The notes beneath the pieces are model-generated. The model had not been told where the DNA came from. It searched no databases and saw only the letters and a program-made list of their open reading frames with translations. Shown in pieces: positions 6,305 through 59,600 of a DNA stretch of 64,000 bases; position 1 is the stretch's first letter; each line of letters starts with the position of its first letter. Where the stretch lies: NCBI GenBank assembly GCA_035535875.1, contig DATLPF010000053.1:681-64680 (forward strand). Reading direction: 5' to 3'. Source of the stretch: Propionibacteriaceae bacterium. Its GTDB lineage: Bacteria; Actinomycetota; Actinomycetes; Propionibacteriales; Propionibacteriaceae. Both the position numbers and the translations under genes were made by a program.

Positions 6305-6320
6305 GAACAGTTTCGGATAA

Positions 6321-6388
6321 CGGGGCGGGTTATGCCGCGACTACTATGCGGCACAATCCGCCCCGCCGCTACCAAGCGGCACAATCCG
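6321..6388. repeat. Hairpin repeat family C with an extra arm
   Basis: CGGGGCGGGTTATGCCGC / GCGGCACAATCCGCCCCG stem; GCGGCACAATCCG recurs at 6376 and 53287. Confidence 0.7.
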
Positions 6389-12432: not shown

Positions 12433-12437
12433 ATACA

Positions 12438-12487
12438 GACTTGTCAGCGTCTCAGCGAGTCCTAGCACTCTGAGACTCTGACAAGTC
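12438..12487. terminator. Long hairpin between convergent genes (putative bidirectional terminator)
   Basis: GACTTGTCAGCGTCTCAG...CTGAGACTCTGACAAGTC. Confidence 0.65.
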
Positions 12488-12493
12488 GGCAAA

Positions 12494-12746: not shown

Positions 12747-13685
12747 TCAACTGGCCTTCTTGGCTGACTTCGCTGTCGTTGCCTTCTTCGCCGATGCCTT
12801 CCTAGCCGGGGCTTTCTTGGCCGCCGACTTCTTAGCCGGGGCCTTCTTCGCCGCAGCCTTCTTGGCTGAGGGCTTGGTCTCCGCCGCCTTCCTGGCAGCG
12901 CGGTTCTGCTCGACGCTGCGTCGCAGTGCCTCCATCAGGTCGACCACTTCCCCACGGTCGGCCTGCTCTTCGCCTTCCTCGCCGAAGGTGGCGGCCGTGT
13001 CGACGGCATCCCCCTTCTCCAGCTTGGCAGCGATCAGTTGACGCAATTGATCTTGGTACTCATCGCTGAACTTGTCGGGGGTGAAGTCGGCGGCCATGTT
13101 GTCGATCAGTGACGACGCCATCTTGAGCTCCTGAGGCGAGACCCCTACGTCCTCCTTGAGGATCGAGAAATCAGCCTCCCGCACCTCGTCATCCCACAGC
13201 AGTGACTGCAGCATCAGCACCTTTCCGCGGGACCGCAGCGCTCCAAGCCGGGTCTTCTGCCGGAGCGAAAACTGCACCACCGCTGTCCGATCAGTCTCTT
13301 CCAGGGCGCGCCGAAGGAGAGCGTACGCCTTGCCGGCTGGCTTCTCCGGCTCCAAGAAGTAGCTGCGATCGAACATGATCGGATCGATTTGCTCCGATGG
13401 CACGAACTCCACGACCTCGATCTCCTTGCTGCGCTCCTCCGGCAGCGACTTGAGGTCGTCTTCGGTCAGGACCACAGTGGTCTTGCCGTCCGCGTACGCC
13501 TTGTCGATGTGGGCGTACTCGACCACCTTGCCGCACACCTCACACCGCCGTTCGTAGCGGATCCGTCCGCCATCGGCATCGTGTACCTGATGGAGGCCGA
13601 CGTCGTGGTCCTCGGTCGCGGCGTAGAGCTTGATCGGCACATTCACCAGGCCAAATGTGATGGCTCCCTTCCAGAGGGCTCTCAT
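12747..13685 (-). CDS. ku: NHEJ Ku protein with AKKA-repeat basic tail
   Basis: [33 protein letters not shown]; divergent from ligD. Confidence 0.96.
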
Positions 13686-13769: not shown

Positions 13770-16205
13770 ATGGGCAAGGCGTCGCGTGACCAGGTAGTGA
13801 CCATCGAGGGTCGGACGATCAAGCTCAGCAACCTCGACAAGGTGCTCTATCCCCAGACGCAGACCACCAAGGCCGATGTTTTGTCCTATTACGCGCAAGT
13901 CGGTACAACGATGTTGCCGCATCTGCGTGATCGGCCGGCGACGCGGAAACGTTGGCCTGACGGCGTCGGCGACGTGAAGGGAAAGCGGCCGACCGTCTTT
14001 TTCAACAAAGATCTGGGCGCAGGCACCCCGGATTGGGTAGAGCGCCGGACGATCGCGCACAGAGATCACGACAACGACTATCCGGTGATCAATGATCTTG
14101 CGACTCTTGCCTGGCTGGCGCAGCTGGCCGCCCTCGAAATTCATGTGCCGCAGTGGCGTTTCGGGCCGGACGGGAAGCCTCAAAATCCTGACCGGTTGGT
14201 CCTTGATCTTGATCCCGGTCCTGGCGTGAGCCTGGCGCAGTGCGCCTGGACTGCGATGCTCGTACGGGACATCCTGCGCGACATCGGGCACGATCCGGTA
14301 CCAGTCACCAGCGGAAGTAAGGGCATCCATCTGTACGCGCCGCTGGATCGCTCGCAGACCTCGGAGCAGGCCACCGAGGTGGCGCGTGAACTCGCGCTCG
14401 CGCTGGAGTCTGATCATCCTGACCTCGTGATCAGCAGCATGAAACGCTCGGAGCGGGACGGCAAGGTGTTCATCGACTGGAGTCAGAACAACGGCGCCAA
14501 GACCACCGTTTCGCCCTACTCGCTGCGCGGCCGGGAGCGGCCCTGGATTGCCGCGCCGCGGACCTGGGATGAACTGGAGGATCCGGATCTGCGGCAGCTT
14601 GAGTACGAAGAAGTGATCACAAGAGTGGCCGATCTTGGTGACCTACTCGCCCCACTGGCTCCGGACGCCGGCCGGGATCGGCTCGCTACATACCGCAGCA
14701 TGCGCGATCCAGCGAAGACACCAGAGCCGGTGCCCGGAGGGCCCACGGATGGGCAGCGAGACGGCTTCAGATTCGTCATCCAGGAACACCATGCCCGCCG
14801 GCTGCACTACGACGTTCGGCTGGAACACGACGGTGTGCTGGCCAGCTGGGCAGTGCCCAAGGCACCGCCCACCGACCCGAAGATCAACCACCTCGCGGTG
14901 CGGACCGAAGATCATCCGATGGAGTACCTCACCTTCCACGGGAGCATCCCCAAGGGTCAGTACGGCGCGGGCGCGATGCGAATTTGGGACACCGGCACCT
15001 ATCGCCTGCACAAGTGGCGTGAGGGCAAAGAAGTTATCGTCACGCTCTTCGGCCAGCCGGATGGCGGACTTGGCGGGGTGCGCAAGTTCGCCCTGATCCA
15101 CACCGGCAGTGGAGATTCGCAGCCGGAGAAGAACTGGCTGATGCACCTGATGGACACCGATCCCGAAGACCTGGCAGCGCGCGGTGATCATGTCGAAGAG
15201 CGAGGTTCCGTTGAAGAAGCCGATTTTCCCGAGCAGGTAGAGCCCATGCTGGCGACCCTGACCGACGCCGCCCACTTTGGCGATGAGTCCGGCTGGGCAT
15301 TCGAGATGAAATGGGACGGCGTCCGCGCCGTTGCCTATCTAGCCGCCGGGCGTGTCAAGCTGCTCAGCCGAAAGGGCCGTGACGACACCAAGGCCTATTT
15401 CGACGTTGCCGACGAGCTCCCCAAGATCAACGCCAAGACGGCGATCTTGGACGGTGAGGTGGTGGTGACTGATGCTGCCGGACGACCCAACTTCGGCCTG
15501 CTGCAGCATCGGATCAACCTCACCAAGCCGGCTGACATCGAGCGCACTGCCAAGACCTACCCGGCACAGTTGATGCTCTTCGACATCCTCGAGTTGAACG
15601 GCCAGTCATTGATCAAGAAGACGTACCAGGAACGCCGAGAGATCCTGGAAAACCTGATACCCCCGGAGCCCGGATCACGGATCCAGGTACCACCGATTTT
15701 CGAAGGCGATCTGCGGGCGGCATTGGAGACAGCTGATCAACTTCGACTCGAGGGTGTGGTCGCCAAACGCCGTAACTCGATCTACCAGCCGGGACGACGT
15801 ACACACATCTGGCTCAAGATCAAACTACACCGTGCCCAGGAGGTTGTGATCGGTGGCTGGCGAGAGGGTCAGGGCCGCCGTGGCGGCGGAGTCGGGTCGC
15901 TGCTGATGGGACTGCCGACCGAGGCCGGCCTGCACTACGTAGGCCGTGTCGGATCGGGGTTCAACGACCGCCAGCTCGACGACATCCAGGCCAAGCTGGA
16001 GAAGCTGATGCGCAAGACCTCGCCGTTCATCGACGTGCCGCGGGAGGACGCTCGGGACGCGCATTGGGTCACGCCGTCTCTGGTTGGCGAGGTGACGTAC
16101 GGCGAGCTCACGGAGCCAGGGCGGCTACGCCACCCGGTCTGGCGTGGACTGCGGCCGGACAAGTCGCCTGATGAGGTGGTCTGGGAGCGTCCGCCCGAAA
16201 CCTGA
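13770..16205 (+). CDS. ligD: NHEJ DNA ligase D (polymerase-phosphoesterase-ligase)
   Basis: DLDPG and SGSKGIH (Pol); QEHHARRLHYD (PE); EMKWDG, EGVVAK, LRHP (ligase). Confidence 0.96.
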   Translation: MGKASRDQVVTIEGRTIKLSNLDKVLYPQTQTTKADVLSYYAQVGTTMLPHLRDRPATRKRWPDGVGDVKGKRPTVFFNKDLGAGTPDWVERRTIAHRDHDNDYPVINDLATLAWLAQLAALEIHVPQWRFGPDGKPQNPDRLVLDLDPGPGVSLAQCAWTAMLVRDILRDIGHDPVPVTSGSKGIHLYAPLDRSQTSEQATEVARELALALESDHPDLVISSMKRSERDGKVFIDWSQNNGAKTTVSPYSLRGRERPWIAAPRTWDELEDPDLRQLEYEEVITRVADLGDLLAPLAPDAGRDRLATYRSMRDPAKTPEPVPGGPTDGQRDGFRFVIQEHHARRLHYDVRLEHDGVLASWAVPKAPPTDPKINHLAVRTEDHPMEYLTFHGSIPKGQYGAGAMRIWDTGTYRLHKWREGKEVIVTLFGQPDGGLGGVRKFALIHTGSGDSQPEKNWLMHLMDTDPEDLAARGDHVEERGSVEEADFPEQVEPMLATLTDAAHFGDESGWAFEMKWDGVRAVAYLAAGRVKLLSRKGRDDTKAYFDVADELPKINAKTAILDGEVVVTDAAGRPNFGLLQHRINLTKPADIERTAKTYPAQLMLFDILELNGQSLIKKTYQERREILENLIPPEPGSRIQVPPIFEGDLRAALETADQLRLEGVVAKRRNSIYQPGRRTHIWLKIKLHRAQEVVIGGWREGQGRRGGGVGSLLMGLPTEAGLHYVGRVGSGFNDRQLDDIQAKLEKLMRKTSPFIDVPREDARDAHWVTPSLVGEVTYGELTEPGRLRHPVWRGLRPDKSPDEVVWERPPET

Positions 16206-17024: not shown

Positions 17025-18146
17025 TCATTCCTCAACGATCCCCGCAAGCTGGAGGCCACGGTGCGCCGCCAGCCGCTCGGCTTCAATCTCCAACTGGCTG
17101 CGGATCCGCTTCGAAAGGGCGGTCCAGAGGGATAGGCGGAGCGTGAACGCGCGGCTGGTCGCCTTTGGTCGCCAGGTGCCGACAATGTCTGTGCCATGGA
17201 GCACAGCTCCGGGCCGGCCGAGAATCGGCCAGAGCTCCTTGTGCCTACTGACATCGGGCACGATCAAATCTCGATCCTTCCCCTGCAGGAAGAGATCGAA
17301 CCCGCCAAGCAGCCGCAGCAGTTCTTGATCTTGCTCGATGTCGCCTACCTCGCCCAGCGCCCAAGCCTGCCGGCCAGCAACGGGGACTTCCTCCGCATCC
17401 TTAGGCCAGTGCGCCTTGATCTCGGCGACCGGCGAATCGAGGAACGCGGCGACGTCGCTCGGTGTGGCTGGGCCGAGGAACCTGAGGTAATTGCGAATCG
17501 GTTGCAGCGACTTCGGCGCGGCCAGTGGGTCCGGAGCAGGTCCAGGCGTACGTCTCGACCAGCCCGGAATGCGACGCAGCACAGGTGGTGAGGTGCCGGG
17601 CTCCAGCTCAAGCCCGGCGTAGAGGGCACCAATGCGGAAAGGTACTTCCCATGAATGTGTCGCTTTGCAGGCCCCGCAGTACCGGAGGTAGGGAGGATCC
17701 AGGAGCGCCGTGAGTTGGGTGGACACTTCGCCCTTGTCCAATGTCCGGGTTACCACGTGGCGCATCTGAGTAGCGACCTCGGTAAGACCCGCGAGGGTGG
17801 GAATTCCGGCCTCCTTGAGCGGCTTGTCAGCACCGATCACTCGTTTGGCCGCATCCCGATCCGACAGCGGCGAGGTCGCCACGAGAACCTCAGGCAGCTC
17901 GGTGCGCCGGTAGTAATGGGGCGCGCCCCGCAGGGTCCATACCAACGCCACGTCCGGGCTGGCTTCGAGCTCCGTCGCATCCCGTACCGGAACACCGCGG
18001 TTGGCCAGCGCCCAGCTCGCGCCGTCCCGACCGGTGTCTTGCACACCGAAGTCGAAGATGGCTGCATCGGTGATCGCTCGCGCGGCTTCCGGGCGGTCGA
18101 GCTGCTGTGCATGGATGCGGTACGCCAGCACCTGAGATCGCTTCAT
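17025..18146 (-). CDS. AlkZ-like (HTH_42) winged-helix DNA glycosylase family protein
   Basis: GVQDT, WTLRGAPH, YLRFLGPAT..D.A.F, LL..FD.FLQ, G.IVGTWR; AGGAG RBS. Confidence 0.8.
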   Translation of the reverse strand: MKRSQVLAYRIHAQQLDRPEAARAITDAAIFDFGVQDTGRDGASWALANRGVPVRDATELEASPDVALVWTLRGAPHYYRRTELPEVLVATSPLSDRDAAKRVIGADKPLKEAGIPTLAGLTEVATQMRHVVTRTLDKGEVSTQLTALLDPPYLRYCGACKATHSWEVPFRIGALYAGLELEPGTSPPVLRRIPGWSRRTPGPAPDPLAAPKSLQPIRNYLRFLGPATPSDVAAFLDSPVAEIKAHWPKDAEEVPVAGRQAWALGEVGDIEQDQELLRLLGGFDLFLQGKDRDLIVPDVSRHKELWPILGRPGAVLHGTDIVGTWRPKATSRAFTLRLSLWTALSKRIRSQLEIEAERLAAHRGLQLAGIVEE

Positions 18147-18223
18147 CACACTCCTGATGGCAGCGCCATAGGGCGCGCGTCCATAACGCATAAAGACGAT
18201 ATGTCCAGCCGCAGACACATGTG

Positions 18224-18315
18224 TCCCGCAGAATCACACCTCAGCCATCGGCAACAAGCCGCGCCCAAGCGTGATCCCAGGGATGTGGCGCCACCTGAAG
18301 TGTGATTTCGCGGGA
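18224..18315. repeat. 92-bp element with 21-bp imperfect terminal inverted repeats (family B, left copy)
   Basis: TCCCGCAGAATCACACCTCAG...CTGAAGTGTGATTTCGCGGGA, 18/21 complementary, 50-bp spacer. Confidence 0.85.
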
Positions 18316-18370
18316 AAAAAGATCTGCCCAACCGTTAACATCCGCCCCTGTTTTGAGGCCTTCACTAGAT

Positions 18371-19246
18371 GTGAAGACTTCTCATCTCGATATCCAGGCC
18401 ATGCTTGCTCAAGATGGCGTAATCACTCTCCGCCAACATCCCGAGCTCGCCGGTGCTATCCGCTGGCTCGCGAGACGTGGCGACCTGCAGACGGTCCTGC
18501 CAGGGGTCTACGCTCCGCCGCACACGGCCACTGCAATCGACACGCGAATTCGGGCCCTGATGGCGTGGGACCCGAACACAGTGCTGGTGGAAGGGGCCGC
18601 AGCTCGAGTCTCCTTCTTGCCCACAATTCGAGTTCCCTTGATCACTTGCGCGCTCAAGCACCATCGCCAGGCGCAAGATGGATTCCGCTTCAGCCGCCGA
18701 CAGCTACCAGCTGAACTTGTCGTCAGAAGGGCTGGTCTGCGCTTTACCTCCCCGGCACTGACCGCGCTGGACTTGTGCGATTCCCTTGGCGGCGACGCCA
18801 TCGATGAGGCGCTTCGGGCCCGAGCCACCACGCTGAGGCACCTGCACCGGGCGCTGGACTTGACGAGGGCCCGAGTCGGAAACCCGGAGCGACGCCGCCT
18901 CCTCCTCGACTCGAAGGATGAGCCGTGGTCAGCACCGGAGCGGAAGTTTCACCGACTGCTACGAGCTGCCGGAATCACCGCCTGGAAGGCGAACCGGCCC
19001 TTAGTGATCGGTGGCTCGTTGTTCTTCATCGACGTCGCTTTCCGCCACGTCAAGTTAGCCATCGAGATCGACGGCCGGCTCTACCACAACGACTCGGAGG
19101 TCTTTGAGACCGATCGTTGGCGTCAGAATCTGCTCATCCTGGACGGCTGGTGTGTGCTGCGCTTCACCCGGGCGATGATCGACGATCGGCCTGAGGAAGT
19201 CATCTCGATGGTGCGCAACGCATTGCAGATGCTGGGTGCCGCTTGA
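18371..19246 (+). CDS. AbiEi-like N-terminus plus DUF559 (Vsr-like PD-(D/E)XK) nuclease
   Basis: GDL..VLPGVY, TSPALTALDL, WSAPE, IDVAF, IEIDG..YH, DRWRQN.L...GW.VLRFT; start uncertain (GTG 18371 or ATG 18401). Confidence 0.88.
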   Translation: MKTSHLDIQAMLAQDGVITLRQHPELAGAIRWLARRGDLQTVLPGVYAPPHTATAIDTRIRALMAWDPNTVLVEGAAARVSFLPTIRVPLITCALKHHRQAQDGFRFSRRQLPAELVVRRAGLRFTSPALTALDLCDSLGGDAIDEALRARATTLRHLHRALDLTRARVGNPERRRLLLDSKDEPWSAPERKFHRLLRAAGITAWKANRPLVIGGSLFFIDVAFRHVKLAIEIDGRLYHNDSEVFETDRWRQNLLILDGWCVLRFTRAMIDDRPEEVISMVRNALQMLGAA

Positions 19247-19247
19247 C

Positions 19248-19339
19248 TCCCGCAGAATCGCACGCGAGGCGACGCTACGATCGCAGTGCCACGCACGAAT
19301 CTCGCGGGCGGACGGCTGCTCGAGTGAGGTTCTGCGGAA
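19248..19339. repeat. 92-bp element with 21-bp imperfect terminal inverted repeats (family B, right copy)
   Basis: TCCCGCAGAATCGCACGCGAG...CTCGAGTGAGGTTCTGCGGAA, 17/21 complementary, 50-bp spacer; separated from the DUF559 stop codon by 1 nt. Confidence 0.85.
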
Positions 19340-19411
19340 GTTGCAGGAGGGTTTACCTGGCGTGAGTAGGGTAGGCCGCTCGGAATCGCGCTCGAGCGGA
19401 AGGACGAAACC

Positions 19412-21664
19412 ATGGTCGAGCGTGCTAACTGCGTGATCGCCCTTCGGTCGGAGGGCGTCTCGCTTCTGCTCGACGTCTCAGGCGGGCAGCTGCCCGCAAT
19501 CGTGCACTGGGGTGCGGACCTGGGGACTCTCGAACTCGCCGACGCTGAGGCGCTCATCCTTTCCAACATTGACCCCGGTGGCGCAAACGTCGTCGACGAG
19601 CCGGTCCGTCTCGCAATCTTGCCTGAGCACTGGACGGGCTGGGTGGGTCGCCCGGGCCTGAGCGGGTCTAGAGGCGGCCGAGCATGGTCCCCCAAGTTCA
19701 CCTCGACGGAGGTCCGGGTCGACGGCAAACCGGTGATCGCCACGGACGGCCCGGCTACGGTGATCAACGCGGGGATGGCATCGGTGGAGGTGGAGGCGGC
19801 CGACGAGGTGGCCCGGCTTTGGCTACATATCACCATCGAGCTGACGACGGGTGGGCTGATCAGGGCACGCGCCGAAGTGATCAACACCGGCGATGATCCG
19901 TACGCCGTAGGCGATTGTGTGCTCGCGTTCCCGATCCCGCAGAATGCCCAGGAAATCCTGGATTTCGCCGGGCATTGGGGCAAGGAGCGAGTACCGCAAC
20001 GGCGACTGCTTACTGTAGGCGCGCATGTACGTGAGGGGCGAAAGGGCCGGACAGGACCGGACGCAGCCACCCTGCTCCATGTCGGGGTACCGGGATTCAC
20101 ATTCGCCGACGGAGAGATCTGGGCCGTGCATACCGCGTGGAGCGGAAACCACACGCACTATGCGGAGAGGCTTTTCACCGGCGCGCAGGTGATCGGCGGT
20201 GGGGAACTGCTGTTGCCCGGGGAAGTGATCCTGCAGGCTGGCCAGACCTACCGCACCCCATGGATCTACGGCTCGTACGCACGCGGGCTCGATGCGCTGG
20301 CTCGGCGTTTCCACCGCTTCCTCCGCTCCCGGGAGAACCACCCTTCGGCCACCCGTCCGGTGACACTGAACGTGTGGGAGGCGGTCTATTTCGATCATGA
20401 TCTGGACCACCTAGCTGAGCTTGCCGAGTGCGCTGCAGCCATTGGCGTGGAGCGCTATGTGCTGGATGATGGCTGGTTCGGGGCCCGCCGAGATGATCAT
20501 GCCGGGCTCGGTGACTGGACCGTCTCCACGGCGGTATGGCCGCATGGACTGCATCCCTTGGTGGACAAGGTGACCGGGCTGGGCATGGAGTTCGGTCTCT
20601 GGTTCGAGCCCGAGATGATCAACCTGGATTCTGCAATCGCTCGCGCCCATCCAGATTGGATCATGTCCACCGGTGACCGGCTGCCCGTCGAGTCCCGCCA
20701 TCAGCAAGTGATCAACTTGGGACTACCGGAGTGCTATGCCTACATCCGGGATGCGATGTTCGACATCCTCACCGAGTACAAGATCAGCTACATCAAATGG
20801 GATCACAATCGCGACTTGATCGATGCTGGCAGCGCCCCAGACGGCCGGCCCGGGGTCCACGAGCAGACCTTGGCCTTCTACCGGCTCGTTGACGAGATCA
20901 AGGCCGCGCATCCCGGACTGGAGATTGAGACCTGCTCCTCCGGCGGTGCCCGCGTTGATCTTGGTGTATTAGAACGGACCGACCGCATCTGGGTGAGCGA
21001 CTGCATCGATCCACTGGAGCGGCAGCAGATGAACCGCTGGACTTCGCAGCTGGTCCCGCTGGAGCTGCTGGGCTCGCATATCGCGTCGGGTCGCTCCCAC
21101 ACCACTGGCCGGGTGCACGACCTATCCTTCCGTGCCGCGACGGCGATCTTCGGGCACTTTGGGATGGAATGGGACATCTCGGCTGCGACAGCCCAAGAGC
21201 TGGCCCAGCTCAAGGAGTGGATCAGCTTCTACAAAGCCAACCGAGGGCTGCTGATGGGCGGCGACCTGGTGCGCCTCGACTTCCCAGACCCCAACCTCCT
21301 CGCGTACGGCGTGATCGCCCCCGATCGCTCGTCGGCGATCTACACCGTCGTCTCGATGGGTCGATCAGAGGTCATGCTGCCTGGCCGCCTCCGTTTCCCG
21401 GGTTTGGATCCAGACCGGCGCTACCGTATCCGTCCCATCCCGGTCGGAAGCCCACCATCGGGCTTGAATCCACCTCCATGGTGGCGGGCCATCACGACAG
21501 AGTTCGAGCCGTCAGGCGAACGCCGCGCGCTCGGCTGGGGTCTGCCCCCAGACGGGGGCGACGGCCTGGTGCTCTCTGGTGCTGCGTTGGCATCGACCGG
21601 AGTGATGGCCGCCGACATTCATCCCGAGCATGCGATCCTCTATCGCGTGGAGGCGCTTGACTGA
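19412..21664 (+). CDS. GH36 alpha-galactosidase
   Basis: NVWEAVYF, LDDGWF, FGLWFEPEM, YIKWDHNR, CSSGGARVD, WVSD all intact. Confidence 0.95.
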   Translation: MVERANCVIALRSEGVSLLLDVSGGQLPAIVHWGADLGTLELADAEALILSNIDPGGANVVDEPVRLAILPEHWTGWVGRPGLSGSRGGRAWSPKFTSTEVRVDGKPVIATDGPATVINAGMASVEVEAADEVARLWLHITIELTTGGLIRARAEVINTGDDPYAVGDCVLAFPIPQNAQEILDFAGHWGKERVPQRRLLTVGAHVREGRKGRTGPDAATLLHVGVPGFTFADGEIWAVHTAWSGNHTHYAERLFTGAQVIGGGELLLPGEVILQAGQTYRTPWIYGSYARGLDALARRFHRFLRSRENHPSATRPVTLNVWEAVYFDHDLDHLAELAECAAAIGVERYVLDDGWFGARRDDHAGLGDWTVSTAVWPHGLHPLVDKVTGLGMEFGLWFEPEMINLDSAIARAHPDWIMSTGDRLPVESRHQQVINLGLPECYAYIRDAMFDILTEYKISYIKWDHNRDLIDAGSAPDGRPGVHEQTLAFYRLVDEIKAAHPGLEIETCSSGGARVDLGVLERTDRIWVSDCIDPLERQQMNRWTSQLVPLELLGSHIASGRSHTTGRVHDLSFRAATAIFGHFGMEWDISAATAQELAQLKEWISFYKANRGLLMGGDLVRLDFPDPNLLAYGVIAPDRSSAIYTVVSMGRSEVMLPGRLRFPGLDPDRRYRIRPIPVGSPPSGLNPPPWWRAITTEFEPSGERRALGWGLPPDGGDGLVLSGAALASTGVMAADIHPEHAILYRVEALD

Positions 21665-25444: not shown

Positions 25445-25532
25445 GAAACCTGGGTTAACCCACTCTTCGGACACTTCACACAGGTTGCGACATGTGCAAA
25501 GTGACTGCAACGTGGGTTAACCAGTTTCTGCG
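25445..25532. repeat. About 90-bp inverted-repeat element with GGTTAACCCAC arms (family D)
   Basis: GAAACCTGGGTTAACCCAC...GTGGGTTAACCAGTTTCTGCG between convergent genes; homologous partial copy at 59483. Confidence 0.8.
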
Positions 25533-26985: not shown

Positions 26986-27113
26986 ACCCTGCTCAATCCG
27001 GACAAGGTCGTCTGAAACTTGTAACCGGTCGGAATCTAGACCATAGGTGGCCGCATTCGATCTCGAAAAATCCGCAATGGTCGGAAATTGAGCTCTGTGC
27101 GAGGGCAGTTAGC

Positions 27114-29438: not shown

Positions 29439-29516
29439 TGGCCCCCCTGTTCGCGCCGGTCTGGTCGGGACACTGCCGACGCTGCTCAGGCTAGTGCACG
29501 GTCCTTATTGGCACTC

Positions 29517-29627
29517 TGACAAGCTGTTCGGACGCTCCGACTCCTTGGTCGCTTGCGCTCTACCACAGAACCCGACACGTGGCCGCAGCCGCAAGCTCCT
29601 GCAGGAGTCGGAGCGAACAGCTCGTCA
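29517..29627. repeat. 111-bp long intergenic hairpin
   Basis: TGACAAGCTGTTCG(GACG)CTCCGACTCCT pairs with AGGAGTCGGAGCGAACAGCTCGTCA; inner GCTTGCG/CGCAAGC stem. Confidence 0.75.
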
Positions 29628-29639
29628 TGGTGCACGGAG

Positions 29640-30540: not shown

Positions 30541-30869
30541 ATGCCGAGGCATCAGAAGCGTACGGGCGGTGCGACCATTCCCCGGAAGCTGGCCAATCCC
30601 TGCTTGGTACTGCTGATGATGATCATGGTCGTGAGCTGCTCAAGTCCCGGACCGCCGGCTCCCACCGAAACGGTCCGCGAACTGAGCCGGAGCCGAATCG
30701 CGTTGCCCGAGTCGGTCGCGGCGTCCTCGCTGGCCTCGGCCTCCGCGGAGTTGCTCGTGGGAGGGCGCGCATCGCGAGCGGAGATCACCCGGTGCTCTTC
30801 GCCGTAGACACCTCCGGCTCCACCCGCTCGGTCAGAACCCAGTCGAGGTATCTCTCAACTGGGTTCTGA
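30541..30869 (+). pseudogene. Possible truncated and frameshifted lipoprotein remnant
   Basis: Hydrophobic stretch ending in lipobox VVSC followed by a Pro-rich linker; frame ends at 30807 with a plausible shifted continuation to 30869. Confidence 0.35.
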
Positions 30870-31310
30870 CAAGTCGGCCAGGGCGCGGAGCGCCAGCGGG
30901 TATCCGGCAACACCCAAGCCGACGATGATGCCGGCAGCAACCGGCGACACGTACGAGAGATGCCTGAACGGCTCACGGCGATGGACGTTAGAGATGTGCA
31001 GCTCGATCACCCGAGCTCCCGACCCGGCGATGGCGTCATGTAGTGCGACGCTGGTGTGGGTGTACGCCGCTGCGTTCAGCACGACGCCGACCGCGCCACC
31101 GGCCGACTGAGCTCGGCCAGCCTCCTGGATCCAATCGACGAGCTCGCCCTCCCGGTTGGTTTGACGGAACTCCAGAGTCCAGCCCAGCTCGTTCGCCACC
31201 TCGAGGCAGGAACGCTCGACATCGGCCAAGGTCGTCGTGCCGTAGATCTCTGGCTCACGCATCCCAAGCAAATTCAGATTCGGCCCGTTGAGGACGTACG
31301 CGGAGGTCAT
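30855..31310 (-). CDS. aroQ: Type II 3-dehydroquinate dehydratase
   Basis: [42 protein letters not shown]. Confidence 0.97.
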
Positions 31311-42521: not shown

Positions 42522-42694
42522 GGCGGCTCCTTGTGGGTGCACCGGGCCAGCCGCACCCCAACGTACCGCCTCGCTTTCCGAGGCGGGAAAACAACTTGTA
42601 TGTCCTACCTTTGATCGCCGGGTCGCCTGACGATTCCCTGGAAACCTCACGCCAGCCGCTCGCTATCGGCCCGACACGCCGAGTGGAAGCGCGG

Positions 42695-43882
42695 CTAGCG
42701 TGAGCTTTTGAGGGATTGCTGGAAGCGCAGAATGCGGATCAGGGCCGCTGCGACCGCCTCGGGGCCGGCGGCAAGAGAGACGCGGACGGCGGTACCACCG
42801 TCTCGTTGGTCGAAGTCGGTACCCGGAGTGAGCGCCACACCGTGTTCCTCCAGCAGCGCCTCGCACCACGACTCAGCGTCGGGATGCGGGCCGAGCTGGC
42901 CACCGATGCCCGCATACACATAGAAGGCGCCATCGGCAGGTGCGACGCCAGTCCAGCCAAGATCATCAACAGCCTGAAGCACAATCGTTCGGGCATCAGC
43001 AAAGGCTGAGACCGCGGCATCAGCTTCCCGGTAGGACTCCTCAGTGAAGGCAGCGATCGCCGCATGCTGGGCTGGTACTGGCGGGCACAGAGCGAAGTTC
43101 CCGGCCAGTGCGTCGAAGGACGCCACCAGATCGGCCGGCACCAGGCTCCATCCGAGCCGCCAGCCTGTCATTCCCCAGTACTTGGAGAAAGAGGAGATCA
43201 CGATGGCTTCACGATCATGCTCCCAGGCGCAGCTGGTTGCGACCGTATGGTCGGTGATTCCGTGGTAGATCTCGTCGCTCACCAGCCGAACTTCATGATC
43301 ACGACACCAGGCTGCGAGTTCCGCGAGATGATCAGGAGTGACCATAGTCCCCGTGGGATTGGCCGGAGAGCCGATCACCAAGCCGGCCAGAGGCGCGGCC
43401 GCGTGTGCCTGCTCCAGCATCTCCACCGTCGGCTGGAAGCGTTCCGCTGGACCGCAGGCCAGCTCGACTACCTGACATCCCAGCGAGGCCAGAATGTTCC
43501 GGTACGCCGGATAGCCCGGCCGGGTCAATGCCACCCGGTCACCATGATCAAAAGCGGCCAGGAAGCTAAGTAGGAAGGCGCCCGATGAACCCGTGGTCAA
43601 CGCGATTTGATCTTCATCGACGTTTAGCGAGTACCAGCGCCGGTAGTGTGCCGCGATCTCGCGTCGCAGCGGCTTGATGCCAAAGGTTTCGGTGTAGCCC
43701 AGCGGCGTACGGTCGACCATCAGCTCGGCGGCCCGACGCCGGACGTCTGCCGGGGCCCCTTGAGACGGCTCGCCAGCACAGAGTGAGATGACCTCCCGAC
43801 CCTGGGCACGCAATTGTGCCACGCGGTTGAGGATGCTCATGACCGCGAACGGCGGAACGGCGGCCCGGTGCGACGGTTTCAT
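42695..43882 (-). CDS. Class I/II PLP-dependent aminotransferase
   Basis: SPANPTG, SDEIYH, SFSKYWGMTGWRLG, DGAFY. Confidence 0.93.
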   Translation of the reverse strand: MKPSHRAAVPPFAVMSILNRVAQLRAQGREVISLCAGEPSQGAPADVRRRAAELMVDRTPLGYTETFGIKPLRREIAAHYRRWYSLNVDEDQIALTTGSSGAFLLSFLAAFDHGDRVALTRPGYPAYRNILASLGCQVVELACGPAERFQPTVEMLEQAHAAAPLAGLVIGSPANPTGTMVTPDHLAELAAWCRDHEVRLVSDEIYHGITDHTVATSCAWEHDREAIVISSFSKYWGMTGWRLGWSLVPADLVASFDALAGNFALCPPVPAQHAAIAAFTEESYREADAAVSAFADARTIVLQAVDDLGWTGVAPADGAFYVYAGIGGQLGPHPDAESWCEALLEEHGVALTPGTDFDQRDGGTAVRVSLAAGPEAVAAALIRILRFQQSLKSSR

Positions 43883-53149: not shown

Positions 53150-53265
53150 CCGCCCCACGGTAGTTTGCTCCCTTGCTTCAGGAGTTGCGCCCACCCGAAA
53201 TCCCACAAATCGCGACTGGCCTGCGACGTGAGGAGCGTCCGCCGCCGCCGATACCTCAATATCAG

Positions 53266-53301
53266 GGCGGATCACGCCGCGAGTATGCGGCACAATCCGC
53301 C
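53266..53301. repeat. Hairpin repeat family C, second copy
   Basis: GGCGGATCACGCCGC-GAGTAT-GCGGCACAATCCGCC, matching 6324..6362. Confidence 0.7.
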
Positions 53302-59441: not shown

Positions 59442-59482
59442 CGCTCACTCCCTCTTCGCAGCCGACTCCGGCCCACCTGTTG

Positions 59483-59530
59483 GAAACTGGGTTAACCCAC
59501 GTTCCACTTGCCTCACACATGTTGCAACCT
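59483..59530. repeat. Partial family D repeat
   Basis: GAAACTGGGTTAACCCACGTT...CACATGTTGCAACCT matches the reverse complement of 25481..25528. Confidence 0.75.
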
Positions 59531-59600
59531 ATGCAGTGCGCAAGGAAGCTGTGCAGAGCTCGAGTCTCAGAGCGGCGCTGCGGTGATTGGGAGGAGAGTC

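Follow-up and report, generated by a model that had tools for sequence, protein, structure and literature searches.

AbiEi-Vsr nuclease genes and their flanking palindromic repeats in a soil actinobacterium: a candidate REPIN/RAYT-like system

Why should a nuclease gene standing between two host genes be bracketed by palindromic elements of exactly the same length? This question is raised by a locus of Propionibacteriaceae bacterium, a soil actinobacterium with a genome of 3.77 Mb (64% GC, 82% complete). The locus lies in a stretch of 64,000 nucleotides, which as a whole we call the window. An earlier note, made from the letters of the window, had suggested a module analogous to the RAYT genes with their REPINs. 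We consider a REPIN/RAYT-like system built on an unrelated enzyme to be the best reading; binding, cutting and mobilisation by this enzyme are predicted. The AbiEi-Vsr protein is, in our judgment, probably a resident and mostly vertically inherited enzyme that copies a family of 92-bp palindromes to new sites.

The locus and its product

The two 92-bp elements, with arms of 21 nt and spacers of 50 nt, were confirmed where the earlier note had placed them (Table 1). The arms of the left element are 86% complementary over 21 nt; those of the right element extend to 19246-19268/19319-19341 (23 nt, 83% complementary), with 21 nt inside the tabulated ends. The shared start of the elements also held up, with 15 of the first 16 nt identical, as did the position of the right element 1 nt past the stop codon, which ends at 19246. 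Between the end of the left element and the likely start codon there are 55 bp. A longer frame of 314 aa starting at 18302 was rejected: the database protein has 291 aa and matches the GTG at 18371.

Table 1. Coordinates of the features of the locus, the window and the repeat families 3 and 12.
Feature	Position	Strand	Details
Left palindromic element, family 7, 92 bp	18224..18315		arms 18224-18244 and 18295-18315, spacer 50 bp
Centre of left element, 10-bp pseudo-palindrome	18265..18274		degenerate match to motif TCACGCGTGA, minus strand better
Nuclease gene, 291-aa AbiEi-like + Vsr/EDxHD (DUF559) protein	18371..19246	+	open frame back to 18302
Residues 3-182, predicted AbiEi-type winged helix and AbiEi C-terminal domain	18377..18916	+	structure match
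Residues 185-290, predicted Vsr-like nuclease with E190, D221, E232, H239, D248	18923..19240	+	structure/profile match
Right palindromic element, family 7, 92 bp	19248..19339		arms 19248-19268 and 19319-19339; centre 19289-19298
Solo family-7 element, shortened to 83 bp	42634..42716		same window
AlkZ-like glycosylase, left neighbour	17025..18218	-	host gene outside unit
GH36 alpha-galactosidase, right neighbour	19412..21664	+	host gene outside unit
Eight solo elements of families 16, 0, 1, 6 and 2	6316-6368, 12436-12490, 25445-25525, 27055-27090, 29509-29634, 30831-30878, 53258-53301, 59482-59555		in the window
Family 3/12 elements	C2:26691, C46:10540, C91:89716, C91:149227, C157:1361, C158:1422, C77:31334, C153:1164, C171:33836		genome-wide scan

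Three of the four element strands fold better than shuffled sequence because of the arms, and an Rfam search of 17800-19800 (E up to 1) returned zero matches. With up to two mismatches, the left 16-nt arm occurs 7 times in the 3.77-Mb genome, and 5 of these occurrences fall in three such elements. Joints skipping the cassette were not found in the contigs of four sequencing runs, and two DNA runs span the cassette intact. Position 18618 has G instead of T in both runs X7 and X14. Contigs of two RNA runs cover both neighbours but the nuclease gene little or not at all, an absence of cover that carries no weight. RNA contigs from two studies (X15, X16) end at 19303, within the right element, which is a weak hint of a transcript boundary.

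For the protein, Pfam gave DUF559 at E 9e-10 and AbiEi_4 at E 0.034, below the cut-off. A structure model from a 140-row alignment reached pLDDT 95, compared to 38 for a single-sequence fold. In this model, residues 3-182 match the whole of S. agalactiae AbiEi (6Y8Q; Z 10.2, rmsd 5.0, 174 aligned), with 1ZEL as their best Foldseek match (E 1.4e-3). Residues 185-290 match NGO0050 (3HRL, Z 13.8), I-Bth0305I (3R3P, Z 13.6) and Vsr (1CW0, Z 11.6); a profile search against the PDB returned 3HRL (E 3e-11) and 3R3P (E 3e-5). Foldseek agrees on the AbiEi and Vsr-type matches, yet none of them was below E 0.001. The earlier naming of the gene as AbiEi-DUF559 is carried by Pfam for DUF559 and by the predicted structure for the AbiEi fold. 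By prediction, a complete AbiEi fold is joined in this protein to a Vsr/EDxHD nuclease, a fusion that would apparently have originated by addition of a nuclease to an antitoxin repressor.

The catalytic motif, earlier described as intact, is kept: among 140 homologs E190 is present in 140, D221 in 138, E232 in 139, H239 in 125 and D248 in 137. H239 and D248 align opposite H213 and D222 of I-Bth0305I in the profile alignment (numbering after PMC3239194), and E190 and D221 would belong to the catalytic set by motif order. Against three orthologs dN/dS was 0.27, 0.13 and 0.15, and the gene is, as judged from its codons, evidently under purifying selection. The homodimer prediction scored 0.44, as did one control. 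The family is very large, with 8355 clusters at 50% identity (E up to 0.001), and of 301 genomes sampled across the phylum 58 have a match at E up to 1e-12; the gene's own relatives belong to Propionibacteriaceae and to uncultured Actinomycetota.

Repeat families and their cognate genes

We surveyed the flanks of homologous genes at 76 loci, a set from which a duplicate of the window and five loci that were short or partial had been excluded beforehand. Two were dropped at contig ends, so that 74 had both flanks; one of these (L168) comes from the unpublished genome G150, and none of our conclusions rests on it. An inverted repeat scoring at least 12 was present in a flank of 49 of the 74 loci, compared to 15 of 432 mostly coding control windows, and 25 loci had no repeat of this score in either flank. 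A locus had its own upstream and downstream flanks alike (score of at least 14) in 31 of 74 cases versus 86 of 5402 mismatched pairs; the window's own pair, at 13.5, is slightly short of the mark. Since the 74 loci include kin and the window itself, we claim no p-value, and since many of the loci are kin, the counts overstate independence. Among 2130 crude genes of the window's genome, 285 had a repeat in a flank, 16 had repeats in both flanks and 45 had flanks alike; three of the top eight alike-flank genes are paralogs of the nuclease gene. Both comparisons, with the control windows and with the genome background, agree with the proposed enrichment of elements near DUF559 genes. Two homologs lie between the genes of ribosomal proteins L1 and L10 (L154 in G283 and L168 in G150).

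In the genome at large there are 88 inverted repeats scoring at least 16, compared to 1 per Mb in a 5th-order Markov null, and a genome-wide scan produced 276 elements in 21 clusters. The window elements belong to cluster 7, whose profile matches 15 places, two of which look like a single element at overlapping contig ends. Contig C171 carries a third, solitary copy of 92 bp whose arms are near-perfect. This copy and the two window elements were added to the profile by hand, the remaining members having been clustered without them, so their own scores are circular. Across the genus, the strict arm pattern occurs in 24 of 126 genomes and its reversed control in 0. Cluster 15 (C24:22911-22973, C160:42092-42147) looks like CIRCE heat-shock operators, which we take to be an ordinary regulatory palindrome. 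Profile 9 (157 matches) is probably over-merged and was excluded from use.

The anatomy of family 7 was derived from 66 elements picked by a fixed-length arm pattern from the window's genome and its relatives. Before this selection, the core length was 76 bp in 21 of 31 elements and within 2 bp above that in 26 of 31. The geometry of the unit is fixed: arm, 20 bp, central pseudo-palindrome, 20 bp, arm. The pseudo-palindrome (TCACGCGTGA and one-sided variants) is conserved exactly midway in the 66 elements and lies outside the selecting pattern. Also outside this pattern, the outer positions of the two arms change in concert (paired 0.88 vs 0.48 expected, 0.77 vs 0.52, 0.76 vs 0.47), whereas inner variable positions do not (0.53 vs 0.52 expected, 0.55 vs 0.56), and no pairing is seen between the two 20-bp halves of the spacer (0.29 vs 0.34 expected). 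The claim that pairing, not sequence, is conserved therefore stands for the outer arm positions and falls for the inner ones and the spacer. The spacers, earlier called dissimilar, turn out to share the central 10-bp pseudo-palindrome and a weak consensus across the 66 members. Once oriented, they carry 12.1 bits of information compared to 1.7 when shuffled, so that whole units must have been copied, descending from one unit.

What is conserved is the length, the arms and the centre, and not a full hairpin. Given the fixed length, the unpaired spacer and the conserved centre, a double-stranded binding site fits at least as well, and the earlier emphasis on hairpins and cruciforms is doubtful. 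Read by eye, the centre motif in orthologs points to a face-to-face orientation of the left and right copies. Target-site duplication was not seen, the flanking direct repeats of the 66 elements being equal to the null.

Four intact paralogs, on contigs C53, C60, C239 and C33, are bracketed by families 7, 0, 14 and 16, respectively, which have 15, 52, 14 and 6 matches in the window's genome. Any two of these paralogs share 23-33% identity in local alignments. On C22 there is a fifth with a single weak repeat upstream, and broken ones are present on C219 (family 7 upstream) and C230; PF13338 matches at C77 and C94 are not paralogs. The broken copy at C219:9833-10988 has a stop, frameshifts and an insert of ~180 bp, with the orthologs of relatives intact, and most family-7 solos are closer to its arm type than to that of the window gene.

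In relatives, the paralog set comprised 60 loci of the 78 listed matches in seven genomes, 43 of them intact, and flanks were alike in 32 of these 43. The strongest test was predictive: families 1, 4 and 10, defined in the window's genome without a gene, turned out to bracket AbiEi-Vsr genes of relatives, next to which family 6 occurs on one side only. These four families (1, 4, 6 and 10) persist in the window's genome with 54, 15, 18 and 15 matches, and their cognate gene was not found in this 82% complete assembly. A second family-7 subclade has the upstream copy only. On the protein tree, families 0, 16 and 1 form starred clades, families 7 and 4 need two changes, and the family labels as a whole take 9 changes versus 22.7 when shuffled. 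What the inferred tree shows is clustering, not co-evolution by independent contrasts. The expectation that each clade has its own flanking element is in agreement with these data, as the repeat families follow protein clades both in the window's genome and in the relatives.

None of the 60 paralog loci had an element of family 2, 3, 5, 8, 9, 11 or 12 in its flanks; families 2, 5, 8, 9 and 11 may have other partner enzymes. Elements of families 3 and 12 are ~125-135 bp long, with long, well-paired arms that vary by copy and a conserved one-sided motif at the loop end. For neither family did the 60 loci reveal a partner gene, and the arms may be made by copying. Among the 126 genomes of the genus, 17 had an element and a close gene, 7 an element only and 6 a gene only, all counts being confounded by descent. 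In one genome (G142, 94% complete) no paralog was found with a broad profile; its close relatives have 5-17 matches.

Could the gene be an orphan AbiE antitoxin or Vsr repair gene, with flanks that are an operator and a terminator, or chance REP-like repeats? The upstream repeat is like an AbiEi operator in arm length, and the genome is rich in intergenic palindromes (the 285 genes above). Repeats on both sides are found, however, at just 16 genes, and neither a sigma-70 promoter nor an intrinsic terminator was found in 18100-19450. The gene of Vsr very-short-patch repair is linked to a DNA cytosine methylase. Here, no DNA-methylase family was found in 128 neighbouring frames (E up to 1e-8), and the AbiEii toxin, said earlier not to be adjacent, was present in 0 of the 128. 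These frames are ordinary host genes, and no partner recurs beyond orthologous sites. In the window's genome, 82% complete, neither the AbiEii toxin (PF08843) nor a Y1/HUH transposase (PF01797) was found. As the families match protein clades, the cognate gene-repeat pairing largely refutes the orphan-gene explanation, which we consider highly improbable.

Gain, loss and copying of elements

At the alkZ-GH36 junction we read 29 other loci by eye. The gene was present in whole or part in 6, remnants in 8 (two of them collapsed left-right element hybrids) and a family-6-like element instead in 4; little trace was visible in 4, and 7 were rearranged or cut by a contig end. Solo elements and empty orthologous sites were both found among the genome and its relatives. 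The dS of the nuclease gene (18371-19243) versus L001 (G140) is 0.22, compared to 0.40-0.44 for both neighbours; versus two other relatives it is above that of the neighbours. This pattern hints at allele exchange at the alkZ-GH36 site.

The solo element of family 7 in the window has its orthologous site filled in 5 of 6 aligned relatives, with the copy in G114 degraded or replaced. The solo at C171:28856 is filled in G126 and missing in 4 of 5 relatives, one of them with a remnant; that at C157:61606 is missing in 3 of 5, and G026 differs there from the window's genome by ~91 bp. Other repeat families replace each other at single orthologous sites. Several of the eight further window solos (Table 1) are absent or family-swapped at the orthologous sites of relatives. 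A second family-7 gene, ~63% identical and broken in the window's genome, occupies another conserved site in at least 8 relatives, with an element upstream only. The gene loci are syntenic across species, with two conserved loci in the clade; plasmid records match in 6 of 72,556 cases (1 of these over 80% of the protein length) and phage records in 0 of 50,697.

The direction of copying could be read in one case. In G100, a 117-bp copy at an unrelated site is identical at 115 of 117 positions (98.3%) to the element upstream of the nuclease gene. It includes ~20 bp from the tail of the gene upstream of the donor element, so the direction was out of the gene-adjacent element. The copy has taken the place of ~100 bp of a gene whose G078 counterpart is intact; one junction has two bases of microhomology, and no target duplication was found at the junctions. 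At least one recent copy thus originated from an element beside the gene, its ends ragged and the target not duplicated, though this is one event, seen in a metagenome-assembled genome, and an assembly chimera could account for it. Among the family-7 copies of the window's genome no pair is at least 86% identical, compared to 116 such pairs in family 0; therefore, family 7 is not visibly active now.

The same data bear on the idea that the gene and its two elements make up an autonomous slow cassette, with the solos as scars of recombination between flanks, similar to solo LTRs. It would account for the collapsed hybrids at the alkZ-GH36 junction in G124 and G116, for partial deletions at six more loci and for the dozens of unrelated contexts of paralogs; in G012, moreover, the alignment of a paralog pair (74% identical) begins exactly at the left element. 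We nevertheless find this explanation unlikely. The hybrids are 121-125 bp long, not 92, families with some 50 solos would require equally many cassette insertions, and the loci are syntenic across species. The G100 copy consists of one element and the donor's left flank only. Of six within-genome paralog pairs, five are 66-74% identical or match in part. The one close pair (93%, in G109) has a match extending at least 1 kb beyond the gene, and it may be a strain mixture. An identical pair in G120 was rejected as a recent duplicate, being a contig overlap.

The protein may also be a host factor (a repressor or a recombination/repair nuclease) that uses the palindromes as sites, the repeats being spread passively or by another enzyme and kept by selection. 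In favour of such a role, the N-terminal 180 residues are predicted to have the fold of AbiEi, an inverted-repeat-binding repressor (PMC7319586). Between orthologous sites the arms have changed less than the spacer (3 of 42 vs 14 of 50 differences), and dN/dS is near that of the neighbours. In the main text of PMC11893778, Ssn/SRM modulates transformation, transposition not being shown there. A regulon, however, leaves unexplained the spacer consensus and the second copy at the stop codon, the frequent cassette decay and family swaps at one intergenic site, and a number of matches that ranges from zero found in G142 to as many as 17 in other genomes. Also, no other HUH-type mobiliser was found in the window's genome (82% complete). 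A host factor of this kind therefore seems to us rather improbable.

For the preferred reading, a resident enzyme that copies its own palindromes, the following steps can be proposed. A pair of subunits would use their AbiEi parts to bind both arms in double-stranded form; such duplex binding is expected from the repeat gaps of AbiEi and Rv2827c and from the I-Bth0305I dimer on its central pseudo-palindrome. The 50-bp spacer would be long enough for the two nuclease domains to come together at the central pseudo-palindrome, by analogy with I-Bth0305I. The upstream copy would act as an operator that keeps expression low through self-repression. A rare cut would then be made either in the element that is bound or in another duplex engaged by the complex, and repair by template switching or end joining would leave a copy of the element with a few flanking bases in place of target DNA. 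This last step, from cut to copy, is the weakest part of the mechanism, and a central cut alone does not explain copying. Two kb from the cassette there is a gene pair that we take, from translations, to be Ku-like (12747-13685, minus strand) and LigD-like (13770-16205, plus strand). End joining is one possible route for capturing ragged copies, and the closeness of the pair may be chance.

Significance and comparison with known systems

The arrangement is real and general and apparently undescribed: the full-text literature covered here, which includes few subscription journals, shows no link of DUF559 or AbiEi-Vsr genes to palindromic repeats. As to the earlier proposal of a RAYT-analogous module, the gene-repeat association, the clade-specific families, the solos and the empty sites speak for it, and its emphasis on hairpins or cruciforms does not share in this support. 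We also regard it as possible, if short of probable, that a large actinobacterial AbiEi-Vsr family reads, cuts and copies its own sites by break repair, and so makes up a third independent class of enzyme-plus-palindrome replicators. If this is true, each paralog would read its own long symmetric double-stranded site with no transposase chemistry, and the missing mobiliser of many actinobacterial intergenic repeats would be at hand. The REPIN lifestyle would in that case have had three or more origins, on the HUH, GIY-YIG and Vsr folds, and the family would be a natural library of long-site endonucleases with targets readable from the flanks. The genes are common in Actinomycetota, annotated as 'DUF559' or 'very-short-patch-repair endonuclease', and they are candidate mobilisers for many intergenic palindromes where no RAYT is found. 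Since the flanks give a predicted substrate for each protein, this long-uncharacterised family becomes directly testable, and thousands of protein-site pairs could supply rare-cutting nucleases.

By its model, the protein has in residues 3-182 the two-domain fold of the AbiEi and Rv2827c antitoxins (6Y8Q, 1ZEL), and it shares with these the upstream inverted repeat with arms of ~21-23 bp (PMC7319586). The 23-bp inverted repeats bound by AbiEi are separated by 3 bp and those of the larger Rv2827c by 13 bp (PMC7319586), compared to an arm gap of 50 bp here. Such a wide gap around a symmetric centre would suit subunits that each carry an additional nuclease domain. Unlike in these systems, no AbiEii toxin adjoins the gene, a nuclease domain is fused, and there is a second copy downstream as well as solos elsewhere.

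The catalytic domain is, as predicted, similar to the Vsr-like one of I-Bth0305I (3R3P; Z 13.6, rmsd 2.0, 95 aligned). I-Bth0305I acts as a dimer that covers ~60 bp and cuts a central pseudo-palindrome (PMC3239194), so an N-terminal DNA-binding part and a long symmetric site with a central pseudo-palindrome are common to both. NUMOD repeats there correspond to the AbiEi module here, and the presumed site here is gene-flanking and dispersed, not an empty allele. In contrast to EDxHD homing endonucleases, the gene is free-standing between intact genes and not in an intron or intein. A MITE of a DDE insertion sequence differs in that no target-site duplication was found in the 66 elements or the G100 copy. 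The AbiE pair, the intron-homing gene and the DDE MITE were ruled out by the absence of AbiEii, the free-standing gene and the lack of target duplication, respectively.

Closer in organisation are the Ssn nucleases with NTS/SRM repeats (PMC11893778). There too, the gene of a non-transposase nuclease has its own palindromic repeat on both sides, and the repeats are dispersed in the genome and homolog-specific. With 94 aa, Ssn is a single-domain GIY-YIG protein whose substrates are single-stranded hairpins of 20-50 nt (PMC11893778; the word 'Vsr' is absent from its main text). The protein here has 291 aa and is predicted to combine a Vsr fold with a module that binds double-stranded DNA.

The RAYT/REPIN systems differ in their enzyme, an HUH Y1 transposase compared to the predicted AbiEi and Vsr/EDxHD fusion. 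Their GTAG tag is absent from both window elements and from the 66-member profile, and here the spacer is unpaired with a conserved centre, the host is actinobacterial and matches number up to ~17 per genome. On the other hand, as in RAYT/REPIN, REPtrons and TIRtrons (PMC3116915, PMC3733652), an enzyme gene is flanked by its cognate repeat, with inverted arms around a less conserved spacer and many solo extragenic copies. RAYTs are syntenic and nearly absent from plasmids (bioRxiv 10.1101/2021.07.10.451892), and the same synteny and near-absence are seen here. Repeat-specific paralogs within one genome, and the presence or absence of dispersed inverted doublets between relatives, are likewise shared by the two systems.
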